This document shows positions 3,102 through 16,866 of a DNA stretch of 64,000 bases, piece by piece. Within the stretch, counting starts at the first letter, position 1; every line of letters begins with the position of its first letter. Position numbers and translations under genes: made by a program. The notes beneath the pieces were generated by a model. It was not told the DNA's origin. It saw nothing but the letters and a program-made list of their open reading frames with translations, and ran no database searches. This DNA is from Escherichia phage ECp13, in sequence record PP274704.1. One strand, given 5' to 3'.

Positions 3102-3130
3102 GTCTAAATACCGTGTAATAAATATATCTA

Positions 3131-3138
3131 TATTTATA
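3131..3138 (-). promoter_or_regulatory. late promoter (TATAAATA) for uvsW
   Basis: tatttata on plus strand reads TATAAATA on minus strand, 30 nt upstream of uvsW start codon (3101). Confidence 0.6.
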
Positions 3139-3151
3139 CTGAGGAAATATT

Positions 3152-6877: not shown

Positions 6878-8156
6878 CATCAATGATAATTTTTGGTAGC
6901 TTAACACCTAATAAAACAGACAAATCTGAACGACCCGCCATTTTATCCATGTCTCCACCATCAATTACTCTTGCTTCTTTTTCATCTTTTGCTACAGTGT
7001 AAGGATTTGCAGATAAAGCATATCTAACTAATAAACCGATAGATGGCTGCAAACTTTCTGGATCAACTACAACTTTAAATGCACCTACATGTTCAGGGTC
7101 ATCTAAGTCAAGACCTTCTGTATACGGAGCATAGAAAATTGACCCAACAATTTCTTTTTCACCGATATTTTCTACTACGCCAACGATTACATAATCTAAT
7201 GGGCTGTTGGTATCGCAATAAAGCGGTAAACCATTAGCTAAGAACCCGTAGGCATTTTGTGAAAGATATTTGTCATCTTCTGGTTTATGTTTTAACCAAC
7301 CTGATGCAGCAAGAATTGCAGCGGCACGAGCTGAAGCAACACAGAATGTTGCAGTATAAGTTGATTCTTTTTGGATATGCGAAACCATTTCACATACCAT
7401 TCGGTATAATGAACGACCAGCTTCAGGTGCAGATGCATAACTCAAATCAATGAATCCAGTATCAGTAATTCCTGTAACTTTATAGCGTTTTGACACTGTA
7501 ATCAAAGACTGCAGAATATCTTTATTGATTTCATCTGCCATTTCGGTTGCAAGCAAATCTTCCAAGAAATTAGGAGCATCGAATCCATTTGCTTCTAAAT
7601 CTTGTGCTAATTCAACTGTGATGCCAGTTTTAAGTTTACGAGATTTAACCGCGGTTTGCCATTTATTAATCTGGAATCTAGCATCCGCAATTTCACTATC
7701 AGAGCTTTCAAATTTGCTTGTTACTGCAGCATCAGAAAATAGACGAACCTTTAAAAGAACAATTGCAATCTGAAGAGCTAATTCTAAATCGCTTTCTTCA
7801 ATATCAGCAAATGGTGTATCTTCTAATACTTTATAAACGATATTATTATATTTGAATAAATCGCCTTTATTGAGAGTTAATTTAGACTCTTCTGTTAATT
7901 CTGTGATTTGTTCTCGGTCTACATACCCAGCTTCGCCGGCGTAAGTAGCACCAGTTTTAAATGTAAATTCGTTATCTGGGTTAAGGTATTTGATACCATA
8001 AAAAGCAGCAACAGGTTGATTAGTTCTTTGCGTTGCTACAATGTCAGAATATATTAATTTAGTGGTAGCGCGAGTCAAAGCAACGAGATTTGGGCGACCG
8101 ATTGAGTTGCTATTCGTTGTGGTTGATTCGCGCAGAAGTTCGTTGATTTTAGCCAT
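6873..8156 (-). CDS. 24: head vertex protein gp24
   Basis: 427-aa ORF, same length as T4 gp24; gp23-like fold residues; adjacent to gene 23. Confidence 0.92.
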   Translation of the reverse strand: MAKINELLRESTTTNSNSIGRPNLVALTRATTKLIYSDIVATQRTNQPVAAFYGIKYLNPDNEFTFKTGATYAGEAGYVDREQITELTEESKLTLNKGDLFKYNNIVYKVLEDTPFADIEESDLELALQIAIVLLKVRLFSDAAVTSKFESSDSEIADARFQINKWQTAVKSRKLKTGITVELAQDLEANGFDAPNFLEDLLATEMADEINKDILQSLITVSKRYKVTGITDTGFIDLSYASAPEAGRSLYRMVCEMVSHIQKESTYTATFCVASARAAAILAASGWLKHKPEDDKYLSQNAYGFLANGLPLYCDTNSPLDYVIVGVVENIGEKEIVGSIFYAPYTEGLDLDDPEHVGAFKVVVDPESLQPSIGLLVRYALSANPYTVAKDEKEARVIDGGDMDKMAGRSDLSVLLGVKLPKIIIDE

Positions 8157-8183
8157 TGCGCTTTCCTTTTGGTTTATATGATT

Positions 8184-8191
8184 TATTTATA
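8184..8191 (-). promoter_or_regulatory. late promoter (TATAAATA) for gene 24
   Basis: tatttata on plus strand, 28 nt upstream of gene 24 start (8156). Confidence 0.65.
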
Positions 8192-8204
8192 CCATAAAAA
8201 CAAC

Positions 8205-8226
8205 TAAAGGGACCCGAAGGTCCCTT
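8205..8226 (-). terminator. hairpin terminator/attenuator downstream of gene 23
   Basis: GGGACC-cgaa-GGTCCC palindrome at 8209-8224, followed on minus strand by a T-rich run. Confidence 0.55.
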
Positions 8227-8239
8227 AAATCGTCAAAGA

Positions 8240-9805
8240 TTAGATACCTTTAACATATACACGGCGGAAGTAAGCGTTTTTACCAAGGCTATTCAGAATA
8301 GAAGGCATACCGCTCTGGATGCGAGAAGCCGGAGCCTGAGCAGCGGATTCTGCAAATGGGTTGATACCGATACCGTAACGAGTTTTGAATCCCATTACTG
8401 GTTGGAAGTTCTTCGGATCGGAACCACGCAGCGGAGTCAGAGCTACATATGGAGCGTAGTAAATACCAGCATCCATTTCGTTCGGACCTTTATAACCTAC
8501 AGTGAAATAATCCTGTTTAGCATACTGGTCGATATATACACGGTATTTACCACCCAGAACACCAGCAAATACTGACTTAGTAGTATCAGTGTTAAAGCCG
8601 GTAGCCAGACCCTGTGCAGCATAAGAAATGCCAGTATCAACTGAAGCCAGAACGTTAACTACGTTACGGGAAGCGATAATGAAGTTACCTTCACCACGAC
8701 CGGTCTGACGAGCAATTTCAACTGCTTCTTTGTCAATCTGGAACAACAGAGCTTTAAAGGATTCACCCGCCCAGCGAGCACCACGAATATCAATCGGATC
8801 CTGGAAGTCAAACACACCAGCTTTAGAACCCGGAGTCAGGGTCATACCAGATTTACCAACCTGAGCTGAGTAGTTAATCCAATCAACAACTTCACGGTTG
8901 ATTTCCAGCATGATTTCGGTAGCCAGAATACCAGACAGTTCAGCATCAGCATCCATACCGTGAACAGCGCGGAGGTCTTGTGCTAATTCGATAGAGTAAG
9001 CAGCTTTCAGCTGGCGAGATTTAGCTTCGATAACTTGTTTATCGATACGGAAGCCCATTTCATTCCATGGGTTATCGGTAGAACCGTTGAAACCTTCCTG
9101 AAGTTCAGCGATAGAAGTAGCCATACCTTCAGCGATTTCTACCAGTACACCAGCTTCCATTTGTTTCTTAATTTCAGCATCTAATTTAGCTGCATCATCC
9201 GCAGTAGAACTAATTGTTACTTGAGCAGAAGCTTGCAGATACACAGTACCAGTGTCCTGGAAGAAGTGAGTATAGATATCACCTACTGTAGTTTGTGTAC
9301 TAGCAGCCAGAGCTGGGAATTTCTTAGCAGCACCCTGACCAGAGAACATTGCATCTGGACCATACATTGGGTGGAATGCTTCTTTAGCACCGGCAGCGAT
9401 TGGGTCTTTACCATATACTGCACGCAGTGCGAATACCTGGCCAGTCGGGCTGTTCATCGGCTGAACACCGCAAATGTCGAAAGCAATCAGGTTAGGAATA
9501 GCACGACGTACCATACCCATAACAGCTGGGCCAATCTGAGTTACTGCGCCAGAAGTCTGACCTGCAGCGATGTTGGTAGCATTGTAACCGTGGTCACCAC
9601 CGATTTCAGCTTCTGTTAAGAAAGAACCGAATGCCTGAGCAATTTTTTCGTCTTTATATTCCGGAGCTGTCTGGAAATCTTTTTCCTGGTTTTCAAAGAT
9701 TTTAGCGATAATCGCTTGTTTGCTATTAGCAATTTCCGGTAAACCTTCACCTTCCAGTAATGGCTTCCATTTGTTCAAAAGTTCAGCTTTAGTTTTGATA
9801 GTCAT
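8240..9805 (-). CDS. 23: major capsid protein gp23
   Basis: 521-aa ORF, length identical to T4 gp23; host-like GC-richer codon usage typical of this highly expressed gene. Confidence 0.95.
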   Translation of the reverse strand: MTIKTKAELLNKWKPLLEGEGLPEIANSKQAIIAKIFENQEKDFQTAPEYKDEKIAQAFGSFLTEAEIGGDHGYNATNIAAGQTSGAVTQIGPAVMGMVRRAIPNLIAFDICGVQPMNSPTGQVFALRAVYGKDPIAAGAKEAFHPMYGPDAMFSGQGAAKKFPALAASTQTTVGDIYTHFFQDTGTVYLQASAQVTISSTADDAAKLDAEIKKQMEAGVLVEIAEGMATSIAELQEGFNGSTDNPWNEMGFRIDKQVIEAKSRQLKAAYSIELAQDLRAVHGMDADAELSGILATEIMLEINREVVDWINYSAQVGKSGMTLTPGSKAGVFDFQDPIDIRGARWAGESFKALLFQIDKEAVEIARQTGRGEGNFIIASRNVVNVLASVDTGISYAAQGLATGFNTDTTKSVFAGVLGGKYRVYIDQYAKQDYFTVGYKGPNEMDAGIYYAPYVALTPLRGSDPKNFQPVMGFKTRYGIGINPFAESAAQAPASRIQSGMPSILNSLGKNAYFRRVYVKGI

Positions 9806-9823
9806 TTGTGTTAACCTTTAAAA

Positions 9824-10633
9824 TTAGAAACGAGATGCGACTTTCGCATATACACTTACAATATCTTCTGCACCAGGTGCAGCTTTATCTTCTACAGCTT
9901 CAGTGACGAAATTCAGTCCGGCTGCTTCAGTATCAGGAGTATTTATACTCTCAGTAATAGTGCTTTCATCTTTATTAGATTTCTTCACCATTTCTACGAT
10001 GGCACTCAATTTACTTGAGAATGCATCTGAATAATCCATACCTTCGACCAGAGCAGAGACTTTTTCTTTTTGAGACTCAGTCAGATCTTTAGTACTTTCG
10101 CTCAATGCCACTTCACGCTGCACATAATTAATATATGCGTCGCGCATATTGAGTTCTTCGAACAGACGAGCTGATTCTTCTTTATGTTCTTGCAGCTCTT
10201 CTTCCATTTCAGCTACAACATCAACTGATTCTTCTGGAACAACAACGTTGTGTTCAACAAAGAGCTCTTTTAATCCACCAAGCATGGATTCAAACAGTTC
10301 GGCTTTGATGCCTTTATCAACTGCTAATTTATTTTCAGCGAGCCATTCTTTTGCAAGATGGTCGATGAATTTAGAAGCTTGCTCAGCGATTTTCTTCTCA
10401 GCTTTTTCTTCGGCTTCTTCTTTATTTTTTTCTACTTCTTCTTCTGCTTTTTCAGCAATTTTAGCGATATGAGATTCAGCTAATTTAACGGCGTGCTGCT
10501 TGACGGTAGCTTCGAATACAGTGCCGAAAGTTTCTTTTGCTTCCGGAGAAATATTAACTGATTCGAAAATACTATCAAGAGCAACGGAAGCATCAATTTT
10601 TTGCGCTTCAGCAATCAGTTGTTCTTTAAGCAT
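9824..10633 (-). CDS. 22: prohead core scaffold protein gp22
   Basis: 269-aa acidic coiled-coil ORF; length and position match T4 gp22. Confidence 0.9.
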   Translation of the reverse strand: MLKEQLIAEAQKIDASVALDSIFESVNISPEAKETFGTVFEATVKQHAVKLAESHIAKIAEKAEEEVEKNKEEAEEKAEKKIAEQASKFIDHLAKEWLAENKLAVDKGIKAELFESMLGGLKELFVEHNVVVPEESVDVVAEMEEELQEHKEESARLFEELNMRDAYINYVQREVALSESTKDLTESQKEKVSALVEGMDYSDAFSSKLSAIVEMVKKSNKDESTITESINTPDTEAAGLNFVTEAVEDKAAPGAEDIVSVYAKVASRF

Positions 10634-10660
10634 TTTGTAGTCCTGTTGTTTAGATAATAA

Positions 10661-10668
10661 TATTTATA
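10661..10668 (-). promoter_or_regulatory. late promoter (TATAAATA) for gene 22
   Basis: tatttata on plus strand, 28 nt upstream of gene 22 start (10633). Confidence 0.6.
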
Positions 10669-11302
10669 ACGCTTTTTTCATGGCCTCTGCGAGAGCCATA
10701 TAGGCGTCATCGGCACTTGTATCGGCTTCCGCCGTCTGTGATTCGGTAATTTCCTTAGGAGTTACCCATGCATCTGGAGCACTTGGACCCCATACTGCAT
10801 CAACACCTACAGTTAATTTGAATCCTTCGTTTACGATACGATAACCTTTATTTGTGTCAGTCAATGAACCTAATCCACGAGAAGAAACTCCTGGAATCCA
10901 TCCGGCACGAATATTAGCTGCTAATTTATCTCCAGGACCATGGTCACCTTCAATAACACGAGCTCGTCCGTATACGTCATTTCCTTTCCACCACATATCT
11001 TCTATAATGATAGCGGCTTGCATCGGGTCAACATTAGCGCGTGGAGGATGATTTAATTCTCCGAGAGCTTGTTTAGTTAAAACTTGCTCATTGATATAGT
11101 CTTTTACCGCTTTTTCTAATATGCGTTTTGGATAAAGACGTTTATTTCTATTGACGACTTCCGCTTGCATGAATATTCCTTCGATGTATAAACCAGGTTT
11201 TAAACCGAGGTCTTTTCCATCATGAGATTCAAGCATTGGCACGCCATCAATAATTTCGCCAGGTTGACCCCAAGTTTCAATTAGTAATTGGGGTTCATTC
11301 AT
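10664..11302 (-). CDS. 21: prohead protease gp21
   Basis: 212-aa ORF, same length as T4 gp21; between 68 and 22. Confidence 0.9.
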   Translation of the reverse strand: MNEPQLLIETWGQPGEIIDGVPMLESHDGKDLGLKPGLYIEGIFMQAEVVNRNKRLYPKRILEKAVKDYINEQVLTKQALGELNHPPRANVDPMQAAIIIEDMWWKGNDVYGRARVIEGDHGPGDKLAANIRAGWIPGVSSRGLGSLTDTNKGYRIVNEGFKLTVGVDAVWGPSAPDAWVTPKEITESQTAEADTSADDAYMALAEAMKKAL

Positions 11303-11727
11303 TAGCTTAATCCTAATGCTTTACGGCGTTTAAGAGCTTTTTTACGCTTACGCTGAGCACGAGATTGACCTGCTGGATTGGCAATCTTCGTTTTGGTAGC
11401 TTTGCGAGCAATTTGTCTACGTTTTGCTTTAGACAGCCCGGTGGTTTGAAATGCATTACGTTCACGCGTTTTGCGGTCTTTGGTACGTGTAATTTCACCA
11501 CGAGCAGAAACATGTTTAACGATGAATTCATTTAGCGGCATATCTTCATTAATAGAAGCTAATGCAATCGCTAAATCAGTTTCATCATCAAGCATATTCT
11601 CGACAATTGTATTTATATCGTCTTTATTTAAAGCAGAAGACAATTCGTCAAAGCGACCCTGTGCTTCAGGAATAAGTGCTTCGACATTCTCGAGAACCAA
11701 TTCATGAGTTTCAGGGATCAGAAGCAT
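11302..11727 (-). CDS. 68: prohead core protein gp68
   Basis: 141-aa ORF with basic C-terminus; length matches T4 gp68. Confidence 0.85.
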
Positions 11728-11974
11728 TATTCATCATCCTCGTCTTCGTCAGAGTCTTTGTCTTTTTTGTCGTCTTTATCATCGCTATCTTCATCATCCT
11801 CGTCTTCGTCATCATCCTCATCATCAGGTTCTTCACCTTCGATTAAGAAATTGCGAGCGATAGCGATTTTTTCTTCTTTAATTAAATCAATCGTTCTTGC
11901 AGCCATGGCTTCAGCAAATAATTTACGAGCGGCTACGAGGTCGTTTGATTTAATAGCTTCAATTAAACCTTCCA

Positions 11975-13632: not shown

Positions 13633-14124
13633 TTATTCCCAATAATCGAGAGCGAGAGTTACTTCAAAGGTTTGGATTTCATTGTTTGAATCCCAATCTA
13701 ACTGAAGTTCACCCACGTTAGTAGGCCACAGGCCTTTAATTTCGACTTCTTTTGTTACAGTTTTAGCGTCACGAGCATATTGGCGAACAACAGCGCTCTT
13801 TTTATACTCTGCTGGTTTTCCACCAGTAATTTCGTTCCCCTGCCCAGCGGCAATGCTTTGCCAATCAACAAACTTCTGACGAGCATCATGTGCCTCATCG
13901 TTCATTACTGTAACAGTCCAGTCATCGAATGTACGATCGCCTGCTACGTTAATTTTACGGTTCATAAATCCGACTGGAATTTTTTCTACAATACCAGCTG
14001 GTAAAGCAGTGGCTTTACATTGAAACGTAAAATTTTGTCCAAGATAAGAAATTTCTACTTGGAATAAGTTAGGTCGAGCAAAATCACCAGATTCAAACGC
14101 TCGTGTTACATCATCTACAAACAT
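13633..14124 (-). CDS. 19: tail tube protein gp19
   Basis: 163-aa ORF, length identical to T4 gp19. Confidence 0.92.
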   Translation of the reverse strand: MFVDDVTRAFESGDFARPNLFQVEISYLGQNFTFQCKATALPAGIVEKIPVGFMNRKINVAGDRTFDDWTVTVMNDEAHDARQKFVDWQSIAAGQGNEITGGKPAEYKKSAVVRQYARDAKTVTKEVEIKGLWPTNVGELQLDWDSNNEIQTFEVTLALDYWE

Positions 14125-14138
14125 ATTAGCCTCTGTAG

Positions 14139-14146
14139 TATTTATA
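14139..14146 (-). promoter_or_regulatory. late promoter (TATAAATA) for gene 19
   Basis: tatttata on plus strand, 15 nt upstream of gp19 start codon. Confidence 0.65.
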
Positions 14147-14196
14147 TCCCTATGTTTAACCTAGGCATATAGAATTAAAGAATTAAGGATATAGTG

Positions 14197-14204
14197 TATT
14201 TATA
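14197..14204 (-). promoter_or_regulatory. second TATAAATA motif preceded by hairpin, just downstream of the HNH ORF
   Basis: tatttata at 14197-14204; GGCCTG-ccgaaa-CAGGCC hairpin at 14206-14223 lies between the HNH stop and this motif. Confidence 0.45.
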
Positions 14205-14230
14205 TGGCCTGCCGAAACAGGCCTTTAGAA

Positions 14231-14848
14231 TCATTCTAGTAAATCCCAAAGATCTACACTATTTCTTTTTGATTTTTCTCGGTTAGATTCCCAAGTGATT
14301 ATTTCTAAATTATTAATACCGCCAATTATTTCAGCAGGAATTAAATTATCAAAACCGTATTTGATAGATACCTTATGATCAAGTTGGTAAGCACCTTTTG
14401 TACCGCACACTCCTATTTTATCAGCATTTGGCCATTTTGACCAAATTTTCTTATGCTTACGAGTTTCTTTATATACCAATGAAATATATTCACGCATTTC
14501 AGATTTATTTGGGTTCCATCTTGGATGATTTACGCCATGCATACATTCTACTGTTTTTCCTTTATTCGCGGAACCATATGAATTATTGCGCATTTTATCT
14601 TTATGACGGCAATCACGACAAATATCAGTGTTTCTTCCAATGCGTTGGTTATATTCAATTCCACATTTATCGCAACGGCATTTTACATACGCGGTATTAC
14701 CTTTAATGTCTTCAACTTTAACATCAATTTCATAATACCTAAATCCATGTTTAACCGCTCCAAGAGGTGTTAATTTATAACCCTTTGATTGATAATGTTT
14801 AAAATTTGATGGTACAATTTTCACTTTAACAAACTTAGAAATAATCAC
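14231..14848 (-). CDS. freestanding HNH-family endonuclease with N-terminal Zn-ribbon (putative homing endonuclease)
   Basis: 205-aa ORF with GTG start and GAGGAA RBS; CxxC...CxxC region (CRCDKCG...CRDCRH) then HNH/HNN-like core (YQLDHKVSIKYGFDNL...GGINNLEIITWESNREK); AT-rich relative to flanking genes 18 and 19. Confidence 0.7.
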   Translation of the reverse strand: MIISKFVKVKIVPSNFKHYQSKGYKLTPLGAVKHGFRYYEIDVKVEDIKGNTAYVKCRCDKCGIEYNQRIGRNTDICRDCRHKDKMRNNSYGSANKGKTVECMHGVNHPRWNPNKSEMREYISLVYKETRKHKKIWSKWPNADKIGVCGTKGAYQLDHKVSIKYGFDNLIPAEIIGGINNLEIITWESNREKSKRNSVDLWDLLE

Positions 14849-14859
14849 TTGTTTCCTCG

Positions 14860-14880
14860 AGAATAGGGCCGAAGCCCCAT
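14860..14880 (-). terminator. hairpin after gene 18
   Basis: GGGC-cgaa-GCCC palindrome between gp18 stop (14887) and the HNH RBS. Confidence 0.4.
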
Positions 14881-14886
14881 AATCAA

Positions 14887-16866
14887 TTAACCTGCAAGAC
14901 CAGTTAACTCATCGAAGTCTGCACCAGTAGCAGTTGCGACGAAATTCAAAGTAATATAATTTATACTGCGCGCCGGTTGGATGTAGAATGTTGCAACAAA
15001 CTCATTTCTATCAATTACTGACGGAGTGTTATTTGTTGTATCGCAAACTACACGATATTCATAAATTCCACCGAGAGCTTTAATTCCCTGCAAGTACTGG
15101 GAAGTTTCTGTGCGGAATGATGAACGAGTAAACGCGTTGTTTAATTCGAACAAACGATATTTTGAACTACGTCCGATATTCGTTTTCAACATATTAAACA
15201 GACGACGAACGTTAATACGATCAAATGGAGAAGGAACAGAAGTAGCTGTTTTATCACCATATAATACGTAACCATCACCACCTGTACCAGTTACTGGGTT
15301 GATAGCTTCTTGATATAAACGGTCGCGCTGAGCTTGGCGAGTTTCAATAGCAAGTTTAATAACGTTCAAAATTTGGCCACGATTATAACCAGCTGGAGAC
15401 ATCCAAGTCTGAGAAATGTTATCTGTTCTTGCGCATAAACCAGCAATATCAGCTGCTAATGGAACCCAACGATTTACATCATTATATTTGTCATACTGAT
15501 ACTTGTAGTTACCATCAATTGCTGCGTAGGTTGAACTGATATTAAAGTTATTATCAGTGTATGAACCTGCTGCGGTTCTCCAGTTGACTAAGTTATCAAC
15601 AGCACGAGTTACAGGAATTCCAACTACAGTTTCACGCGGTGGCGAGCACAGTACTAAGCAATCTTGGCGAGCATCCCCAATTGAAACGACGTGTTTTTGG
15701 ACAGTAGATGCTGTTTCTAAAGATTCACCGGCGCAAGAACCCGCAATAAACAACTGAACATCAACAGATTCGCGGTCAGCAAAGAAGTCCCAAGCTTCCA
15801 TCAAATCTCCTGCTGTTACTTCAGCATTTGACGATAATCCACCAGACAGAGTTAAAATTCCAGAGAAGCCTTCTGGCCAGTTTTGTGCAGTTGCAAAAAT
15901 ATATTCTGAACCGCCTTTTGCGAAAAAGTCATCAATGTAGATGTTACTATCGTAAATATCTTTTTCACCACGTTTTGTTGAAAGAACAACGCTTTGAACA
16001 ATAGCATCATTGCGACGAACTATAATAGCGTATTGTGAATCAGTTTGTGGTCCATATCCAAACACTGCTTTGGCAGTAGATGCACGTGTTCCGCCACCTG
16101 GATAAATCGGCAGTAATGCAGAAGCCCCTTTTGCGTAGTCAGCTTTAGATACAATTTCAATTTCAATTTTATCGCCCAACTCGCCTGGATAAAGAGCTAC
16201 TACTCCTGGAATTCCATATTTTTCGAGATTTGCCTGAAAGTCAACAGCTGTCATAGCAGCTTCGGCATTTTCAATTTCAGCTAATAAAATACCAGAATCA
16301 GTAATAATTTTTCCAAGAGTTATTACTGCAGCTAAACCAGATGAAGACGAAGAAATTTCCGCGGTCCAGTTAGAACCTAATTCTGGATATTCGCCTACTT
16401 CTTTCGCTTTAGCGATAATTTTTGCGGTAGGAATATTAATTTTCTTAATTTTTCCATCAGCATCTACTTCGGTAACTTTACATTCTGTTTCAACATCTTC
16501 TGAAACATACTTAACCGTGATTTTATCTCCAACCGCGTAGTTACTACCTGGTGTAGAAATAGTGTATTCAATATTACCGGCAATCGGAGATGAGTTTTTA
16601 GCGGTATCTCTATCGACAGCACGCACAACTCGCAAATCATTTCCGTATTGTAAGAAATTCATTGCAGACATAAAATAGTCAGCAGTTTCAGCTGTAGGTT
16701 GACCAAAAGTATTAACTAAATCTACTTCATTTGTAACCTGTTTAATTTGAAAAGCAGGACCCCACTGGAATTTACCGGCCAAAGCTGCTGTACCAGTAGA
16801 GTTATTAACCACGGTGCTTTGAACCGTAGTTTCTTTGAGCTCAATGCCCGGAGATAATAAAGTCAT
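14887..16866 (-). CDS. 18: tail sheath protein gp18
   Basis: 659-aa ORF, length identical to T4 gp18. Confidence 0.95.
   Translation of the reverse strand: MTLLSPGIELKETTVQSTVVNNSTGTAALAGKFQWGPAFQIKQVTNEVDLVNTFGQPTAETADYFMSAMNFLQYGNDLRVVRAVDRDTAKNSSPIAGNIEYTISTPGSNYAVGDKITVKYVSEDVETECKVTEVDADGKIKKINIPTAKIIAKAKEVGEYPELGSNWTAEISSSSSGLAAVITLGKIITDSGILLAEIENAEAAMTAVDFQANLEKYGIPGVVALYPGELGDKIEIEIVSKADYAKGASALLPIYPGGGTRASTAKAVFGYGPQTDSQYAIIVRRNDAIVQSVVLSTKRGEKDIYDSNIYIDDFFAKGGSEYIFATAQNWPEGFSGILTLSGGLSSNAEVTAGDLMEAWDFFADRESVDVQLFIAGSCAGESLETASTVQKHVVSIGDARQDCLVLCSPPRETVVGIPVTRAVDNLVNWRTAAGSYTDNNFNISSTYAAIDGNYKYQYDKYNDVNRWVPLAADIAGLCARTDNISQTWMSPAGYNRGQILNVIKLAIETRQAQRDRLYQEAINPVTGTGGDGYVLYGDKTATSVPSPFDRINVRRLFNMLKTNIGRSSKYRLFELNNAFTRSSFRTETSQYLQGIKALGGIYEYRVVCDTTNNTPSVIDRNEFVATFYIQPARSINYITLNFVATATGADFDELTGLAG

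Follow-up and report, generated by a model that had tools for sequence, protein, structure and literature searches.

In T-even phages, which have found wide use in therapy and engineering, homing endonuclease genes influence recombination, marker exclusion, and genome mosaicism. A beads-on-a-string modularity is known in phage homing endonucleases (PMC2988022). ICP1-like phages carry IPA-HNH and other divergent HNH homing genes (Barth et al. 2023, PMC10448857), and the products F-LimVII, F-LimVIII, and F-LimX of phage LIMEstone1 have been annotated as homologous to Hef from phages Acj9 and CP220 (PMC3296691). Here we describe a further candidate in Escherichia phage ECp13 (PP274704.1), within a stretch of 64,000 nucleotides (the window) that is a segment of a Tequatrovirus (T4-like) genome with its late genes on the minus strand. 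The candidate is an open reading frame (ORF) of 205 residues at 14231..14848 (minus strand), with a GTG start and a TGA stop, between gene 18 (tail sheath) and gene 19 (tail tube). From sequence, it is probably a homing endonuclease gene, free-standing and of an HNH subfamily not described before. The original prediction, made from the letters of the window alone, had likewise taken the ORF for a free-standing HNH-type mobile gene between genes 18 and 19. Comparison supports this core reading through a presence/absence polymorphism, a second allele that is 50% identical, divergence decoupled from that of the flanks, inverted and pseudogene copies, purifying selection, and an HNH-like motif and modeled fold; cleavage and homing are putative.

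The ORF lies in a precisely bounded insert. Alignment with T4 and 18 other Tequatrovirus junctions placed a cassette of 655 nt at 14232..14886 (minus strand). The spacer between genes 18 and 19, which the original prediction had correctly given as adjacent in T4, measures 116 nt in T4 versus 762 nt in the window, and identity resumes exactly at ATTCTAAAGG. The cassette starts right after the gp18 TAA, a boundary that is ambiguous by 1 nt, and takes the place of 8 nt, TAC(G/A)GTGC, found in insert-free phages; it ends at the ORF's own TGA, the last base of which is already native sequence. Searches for this junction over 50,697 phage records covered ~501 records at the Tequatrovirus level. The empty T4-type junction was found in ~384 of these, the ORF in the form seen in the window (RB3-type, or "L") in 47, including RB3, RB5/6/7/9/10, pSs-1, HY03, and HP3, and a second allele (T6-type, or "S") in 70, including T6, PST, and PP01. 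An ORF present at this site in all close relatives would have counted against the original prediction; ~77% of the close relatives lack the insert, giving the presence/absence polymorphism at one precise site that characterizes free-standing homing genes. The same TAC(G/A)GTGC was seen in all 11 empty junctions aligned, and phages with ~76% junction identity also align over the whole empty spacer, which argues for an ancestral empty site. When IMG/VR was scanned for exact matches to the empty-junction pattern, only 5 loci came up. This distribution bears on an alternative that we consider unlikely but serious, namely that the ORF is an accessory gene that has long resided in the T4-superfamily tail module, inherited vertically, often lost, and not currently mobile. 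Its nuclease could then benefit the phage, perhaps by breaking down DNA of the host or of competitors, or through partial exclusion without self-copying. A single empty-junction sequence fits an ancestral empty site better than it fits the many independent deletions that such a gene would have undergone.

The history of the ORF is also decoupled from that of the neighboring genes. Between T6 and the window, gp18 is 98.6% and gp19 100% identical, yet the ORF is only 49.8% identical, which is difficult to reconcile with vertical descent of a resident gene. In four more distant phages, each with a gp18 about 72% identical to that of the window, identities of gp19 and the ORF were 67% and 64% (Roth21), 71% and 45% (RZ), 71% and 39% (CBH8), and 73% and 34% (Bp7). 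Identity of gp18 is not correlated with that of the ORF, a further point against a resident gene. These identities, together with the mosaic structure of the cassette described below, make the history of the gene incongruent with that of the host genome, as in free-standing homing genes. In addition, one full-length member, on an environmental contig (L019, 3001-3591), occupies the gp18/gp19 interval in the orientation opposite to that of both genes, and such an inverted copy likewise speaks against long residence in the tail module.

Some copies are degenerating, as in the invasion-decay cycle of homing genes. In Escherichia phage Pu-Krd-SF2 (L106, 1240-1845), a T6-type ORF is broken by one nonsense codon, at position 89, and in another environmental contig (L044, 2989-3312) an internal stop leaves only the C-terminal half. 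Intact copies showed dN/dS values of 0.13 in the RB3-type (six genomes) and 0.07 in the T6-type; the protein is therefore under purifying selection. The degenerate copies also bear on the idea that the ORF is a terminase-associated HNH protein of the HK97 gp74 or GVE2 HNH type that assists packaging. A single gene does indeed separate the ORF from the large terminase gene (gp17), and likewise from the portal gene (gp20). Such a role is nevertheless highly improbable, as ~77% of Tequatrovirus records are without the gene, among them T4, T2, and RB68, whose packaging is normal, viable phages are found with nonsense copies, and T4 gp17 has its own headful nuclease. This candidate was rejected, since a packaging protein should be conserved along the lineage and most relatives are without the gene.

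The ORF itself is far beyond chance, with homologues in 239 phage records at E-values down to 1e-125 and a match to PHROG 5104 ("unknown function") at E 4e-91. An AF2 model (pLDDT 85.7, pTM 0.47) has three parts. The N-terminal domain (~residues 1-86, 14591..14848, minus strand), which is of the L type, combines beta strands with a CxxC...CxxC zinc ribbon at codons 57-80 (14609-14680, minus strand; C59-C62 and C77-C80), and pLDDT is 89-93 over residues 1-80. C59, C62, and C77 are invariant in the family alignment. The zinc-ribbon domain had a weak match in the PDB to the treble-clef zinc finger mS66, and the treble-clef family DUF4379 (Pfam) matched weakly in 10 of 148 relatives; this half is probably a domain for DNA recognition, a putative role. 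A linker (~residues 87-110, 14519..14590, minus strand) is of low model confidence (pLDDT 62-68) and varies in length across the family. The C-terminal domain holds an HNH-like beta-beta-alpha core (residues 154-192, 14273..14389, minus strand; AYQLDH(158)...N(180)LEIITWESN(189)REK), modeled with a strand at 154-158 that ends in D-H, N180 ahead of a strand at 181-185, and N189 on a helix at 186-191. The Asp-His pair expected of HNH nucleases, D157-H158, shows no variation in 34 sequences and a conservation of at least 90% in 148, and the expected asparagines, N180 and N189, are invariant, also in an alignment of C-terminal domains alone that includes other architectures. These DH..N..N residues are kept down to ~28-33% identity. 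The zinc ribbon and the HNH/HNN-like motif were thus found as the original prediction had described them, as were the 205-residue, GTG-started ORF between the sheath and tube genes and its AT-rich composition (GC 31.9%, against 39.6% in gp18, 40.4% in gp19, and 35.9% in the window). The only fold matches were to HNH nucleases, specific but weak, so that the non-nuclease fold named beforehand as contrary evidence was not encountered. Pfam matches among the 148 relatives were also weak, with HNH_4 in three (3.5e-4), HNH in one, and NUMOD3 in two. The predicted identity as an HNH nuclease is well supported by motif and modeled fold taken together, without any single significant score.

Conservation of the D-H, N, and N residues also bears on whether the ORF could be a degenerate, non-catalytic HNH-like DNA-binding protein, such as a regulator of gene 19 expression. 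The ORF lies directly upstream of the gene 19 late promoters, and curated HNH models do not recognize it. However, the putative catalytic residues are kept in distant relatives and in other architectures, which is unexpected after loss of catalysis, and most relatives are without the gene, yet have an identical gene 19 control region. We regard this role as improbable.

The family extends well beyond Tequatrovirus. An exhaustive profile search gave 6,103 cluster representatives among metagenome relatives at E <= 0.001. In the cases examined, every full-length relative at or above ~30% identity sits directly downstream of a gp18 homologue; these cases comprised T6, S16, Klebsiella phage Roth21, Acinetobacter phages Mokit and Acj61-like, Pectobacterium phage POP12, RZ, CBH8, Bp7, Sinorhizobium phage phiM12, and dozens of environmental contigs with a gp18 ~45-58% identical to that of phiM12. 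In phiM12, the gene after the ORF is not gp19, and in distant phages gp18 alignments reach the last residue, while gp19 alignments begin 13-16 residues in. The family thus appears tied to the 3' end of gene 18, as it is found after gp18 even where gp19 is not next. Relatives that have only the C-terminal domain in common lie at other genomic sites, with this domain preceded by a helix-turn-helix (HTH), a zinc ribbon, or DUF7487 repeats, and in some relatives the linker is expanded or holds DUF7487 repeats. A C-terminal domain on varied N-terminal modules is a modularity like that of phage homing endonucleases, and this shuffling of the nuclease domain onto other DNA-binding modules at other sites again argues against a gene long resident in the tail module. 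A relative of 270 residues with 28% full-length identity (L075, 3001-3813; also in L087) adjoins a gyrase B/topoisomerase II-like gene rather than gp18 and combines the N-terminal domain of the family with a longer linker.

Several results weigh against the homing endonuclease interpretation. At the level of the protein, the ORF had no Pfam match at E <= 1, and NCBIfam and PADLOC scans found no HNH or defense family in it; assignment to an HNH family by profile search, the check proposed with the original prediction, therefore failed for the ORF with curated profiles. In PDB sequences, phmmer and three profile searches found no HNH protein, only zinc fingers and spurious leucine-rich repeat (LRR) matches, and a Foldseek search of the PDB returned nothing. 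An hhalign comparison of the C-terminal domain with the SpCas9 HNH domain aligned only YxxDH, with a probability of 1.4%. At the level of populations, a conserved site in very distant phages is also expected of an old resident gene with frequent loss, and the ORF has the same place after gp18 in Tevenvirinae, Twarogvirinae, Emdodecavirus, and environmental T4-like contigs. Strong purifying selection likewise suits a resident gene. Synonymous divergence is similar in the ORF (0.064) and the gp18 flank (0.071), close enough to favor residence; the copies in these phages therefore do not stem from a recent sweep, and much of the pattern within each type is accounted for by inheritance together with the flanks. 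No SNP was strictly specific to carriers over the 480 nt of gp18, the spacer, and the 390 nt of gp19 that were compared, as a resident gene would also predict. Indirectly in favor of homing, the last ~90 nt of gp18 form one haplotype in 6/6 RB3-type genomes and another in 3/3 T6-type genomes, and four haplotypes occur among ten empty-site phages; against it, empty T2 has the RB3-type haplotype and empty G28 the T6-type haplotype. The native spacer (107/108 nt) is nearly invariant across all junction classes. With these points weighed, a free-standing homing endonuclease gene still appears the best explanation of the ORF, at the strength given above.

One haplotype of gp19, GAGAAGTCTCTGC at the variable columns of nt 285-391 (window ~13734-13840), was present in 6/9 Tequatrovirus ORF carriers and 0/10 empty-site phages, a small sample with counts uncorrected for phylogeny. 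It could be a trace of co-conversion or simply reflect population structure.

The two forms of the cassette differ in a mosaic fashion. Between the window (L) and T6 (S), the leader and first 8 codons are identical and the 3' third is 88-100% identical, whereas across the central ~373 nt (codons 9-132) identity drops to noise level; this idiomorphic core (14453..14825, minus strand) has ~45% nucleotide identity to the T6-type allele. The same L/S pattern, within flanks 90-100% identical, was found in a Dhakavirus-like lineage and in a lineage related to CBH8/Bp7. In an alignment containing five L/S pairs, N-terminal domains across lineages were 41-60% identical between L forms and 47-60% between S forms, but only 17-27% between L and S. 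C-terminal domains were 92-100% identical within the L/S pair of a lineage and 70-83% between lineages. As the N-terminal domains sort by type and the C-terminal domains by lineage, it would seem that a pair of old recognition modules has been maintained in parallel, with recombination homogenizing the nuclease module inside each lineage. Tentatively, and with more doubt than attaches to the homing gene itself, the family may be an ancient, site-faithful homing family that has tracked the 3' end of gene 18 across the T4 superfamily, with two long-lived idiomorphs per lineage. Each form might cut the empty site plus the allele of the other form. If L and S recognize different sequences, the junction would have three alleles (empty, L, and S), with selfish genes in competition, a situation beyond that of invasion and decay. 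The L/S pairs, with one nuclease domain and two recognition domains at one site, offer a natural experiment on change of specificity and competition among homing endonucleases.

A mechanism can be proposed along the lines of known homing genes. As the ORF has no late promoter of its own in ECp13, it would be transcribed late, by read-through from the late promoter of gene 18. The N-terminal zinc-ribbon domain would bind specific DNA in or close to the 3' end of gene 18 and its junction with gene 19, and the flexible linker would carry the C-terminal HNH domain, which would nick or cut. By analogy with Cas9-type DH..N..N HNH domains, H158 may act as the general base and D157 and N189 as metal ligands. 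In a mixed infection with an empty-junction phage, the break would be repaired by T4 recombination from the ORF-bearing genome, and repair would copy the cassette, along with some flanking gp18 and gp19 sequence, into the recipient. The carrier would presumably be protected, since the insertion itself splits the junction target.

Apart from the ORF, the cassette contains its own C(UUCG)G tetraloop hairpin (14864..14880, minus strand), directly 3' of the gp18 stop codon, and a GAGG read from the sequence as a Shine-Dalgarno element (14855..14858, minus strand), 6 nt 5' of the GTG and the same in the T6-type cassette. The GTG is taken as the real start because distant homologues start M-I-I-S-K, and GTG starts recur in ORFs of other lineages. 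No significant structure beyond the UUCG hairpin was found in the leader RNA (z -0.42). S16, POP12, RZ, Mokit, and phiM12 have comparable hairpins in the interval from gp18 to the ORF, and a TATAAATA of its own accompanies the ORF in CBH8 and Bp7. Compared with other RB3-type phages, the window has a 1-nt deletion in the stem of the UUCG hairpin (GGCCC for GGCCCC, within 14864-14880), so that an in-frame upstream ATG is lost, which some records use to annotate a product of 216 residues.

Outside the insert, the spacer retains the native signals of the junction: the hairpin GGCCTGTTTCGGCAGGCC downstream of gene 18 (14206..14223, minus strand), identical in T4 and 10 other empty-site phages, a distal TATAAATA late-promoter box (14197..14204, minus strand), and a proximal TATAAATA box upstream of gene 19 (14139..14146, minus strand), both boxes being in the T4 spacer too. 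Two promoters are annotated in the 18/19 spacer of the insert-free phage Lutter. The original prediction had placed the hairpin and the two boxes correctly, but had read the hairpin and the second TATAAATA as parts of a mobile cassette. This part of the proposal was rejected: the hairpin and both boxes are native and no evidence for a cassette, because they occur base for base in the insert-free T4 spacer, and all three are the same in ten other insert-free phages. A second 1-nt deletion of the window lies in this native spacer at ~14160, with ATATGCCTAGG for ATATGCCCTAGG. Of the flanking genes, gene 18 at 14887..16866 (minus strand; 659 residues) is 97.9% identical to T4 gp18, and gene 19 at 13633..14124 (minus strand) is 98.8% identical to T4 gp19. 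Two T4 homing genes are missing elsewhere in the window, as had been noted before: the gap between genes 23 and 24, where T4 has segD, is 83 nt (8157-8239), and the gap between inh and uvsW, where T4 has segE, is 50 nt (3102-3151). At the next junction, between gp19 and gp20 (portal), Dhakavirus-like genomes have an ORF of 190 residues (L108, 1619-2191; L109, 1908-2480; Bp7, L011, 3769-4350) with a GIY-YIG-like N-terminus and a weak NUMOD3 match, which is probably a seg-like homing gene.

In the literature searched, no account was found of an ORF of this family between genes 18 and 19. No "other HNH" or hef-like gene was counted in RB3 or Acj61 (Petrov et al. 2010), and as RB3 carries the ORF, the gene was apparently not recognized as a homing gene. 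Public names are nearly all "hypothetical protein," with one record giving "homing endonuclease." There are probable errors as well: the records of ZCEC14 and SYGD1 call the ORF "holin," and those of Roth04 and Roth21 call it "type II restriction endonuclease." Two further records are probably misannotated: MG010123.1, a 32-kb record named "Staphylococcus phage SAJK-IND," has 98.8% identity to the present T4-like region, and HP3 is filed under Rosemountvirus. No fewer than 239 deposited phage genomes, those of T6, RB3, and PP01 among them, contain a member of the family, and naming it would correct their annotation. In crosses between T4-like phages, a homing gene at this site would also be expected to make the sheath/tube/portal region a hotspot for biased inheritance.

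Among known systems, the ORF can be compared with T4 Mob (MobA-E), I-TevIII, and I-HmuI, which are HNH homing endonucleases of phages. Like these, it is free-standing between conserved phage genes, has an HNH-class motif together with zinc-binding and modular DNA-binding parts, and is patchily distributed among T-even phages; predicted late or regulated expression and an orientation shared with its neighbors are further likenesses (PMC2988022). Unlike Mob and I-HmuI, in which an N-terminal HNH_3 domain is followed by DNA-binding modules, the ORF has the reverse order, with the zinc ribbon N-terminal (57-80) and the HNH domain C-terminal (154-192 of 205), and no HNH_3 match was found at E <= 1. 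The weak HNH matches among its relatives are to HNH_4 (Cas9-type) rather than the HNH_3 of the Mob type; the T4 Mob proteins were set apart by description and the HNH_3 profile. The motif of the ORF, DH-x(~20)-N-x(8)-N-R-x-K, with helices between two strands, resembles the arrangement of the SpCas9 HNH domain, while protein context and biology are entirely different from those of Cas9.

The LIMEstone1 proteins F-LimVII, F-LimVIII, and F-LimX provide a second comparison, and represent the Hef-like class here. F-LimVIII (596 residues) is encoded at 8129-9919 (plus strand) of the Dickeya phage LIMEstone1 sequence (L114, NC_019925), flanked by gp18 at 9946-11844 (minus strand) and gp19 at 7305-7838 (minus strand). 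It thus occupies the same gp18/gp19 junction as the ORF and is inverted, as is the full-length copy on environmental contig L019. DUF7487 repeats, a feature of Hef-like proteins, occur in some relatives of the ORF family. The ORF itself has no DUF7487, however, and the nuclease region of the F-Lim proteins is Vsr-like (MTES_1575, DUF559), not HNH; an hhalign comparison of the ORF family with F-LimVIII gave a probability of 0.5%, indicating no relation. Membership in the Hef-like class, as represented by these proteins, was rejected, as neither DUF7487 nor Vsr/DUF559/MTES_1575 was found in the ORF with Pfam. Since the gp18/gp19 junction is used by two nuclease classes, it appears to be a hotspot for homing genes.

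Finally, the ORF resembles IPA-HNH and the other divergent HNH proteins of ICP1-like phages in having an HNH domain too divergent for a Pfam profile and recognized only by more sensitive comparison, and in its tie to essential structural genes and boundaries of genetic exchange. Those proteins, compared here by description, differ in having an N-terminal HNH domain with AP2, and belong to another phage lineage and another insertion site. Free-standing HNH homing genes are thus known, and the present family gains further interest from its fidelity to one site across the T4 superfamily and the dimorphism of its L and S forms.

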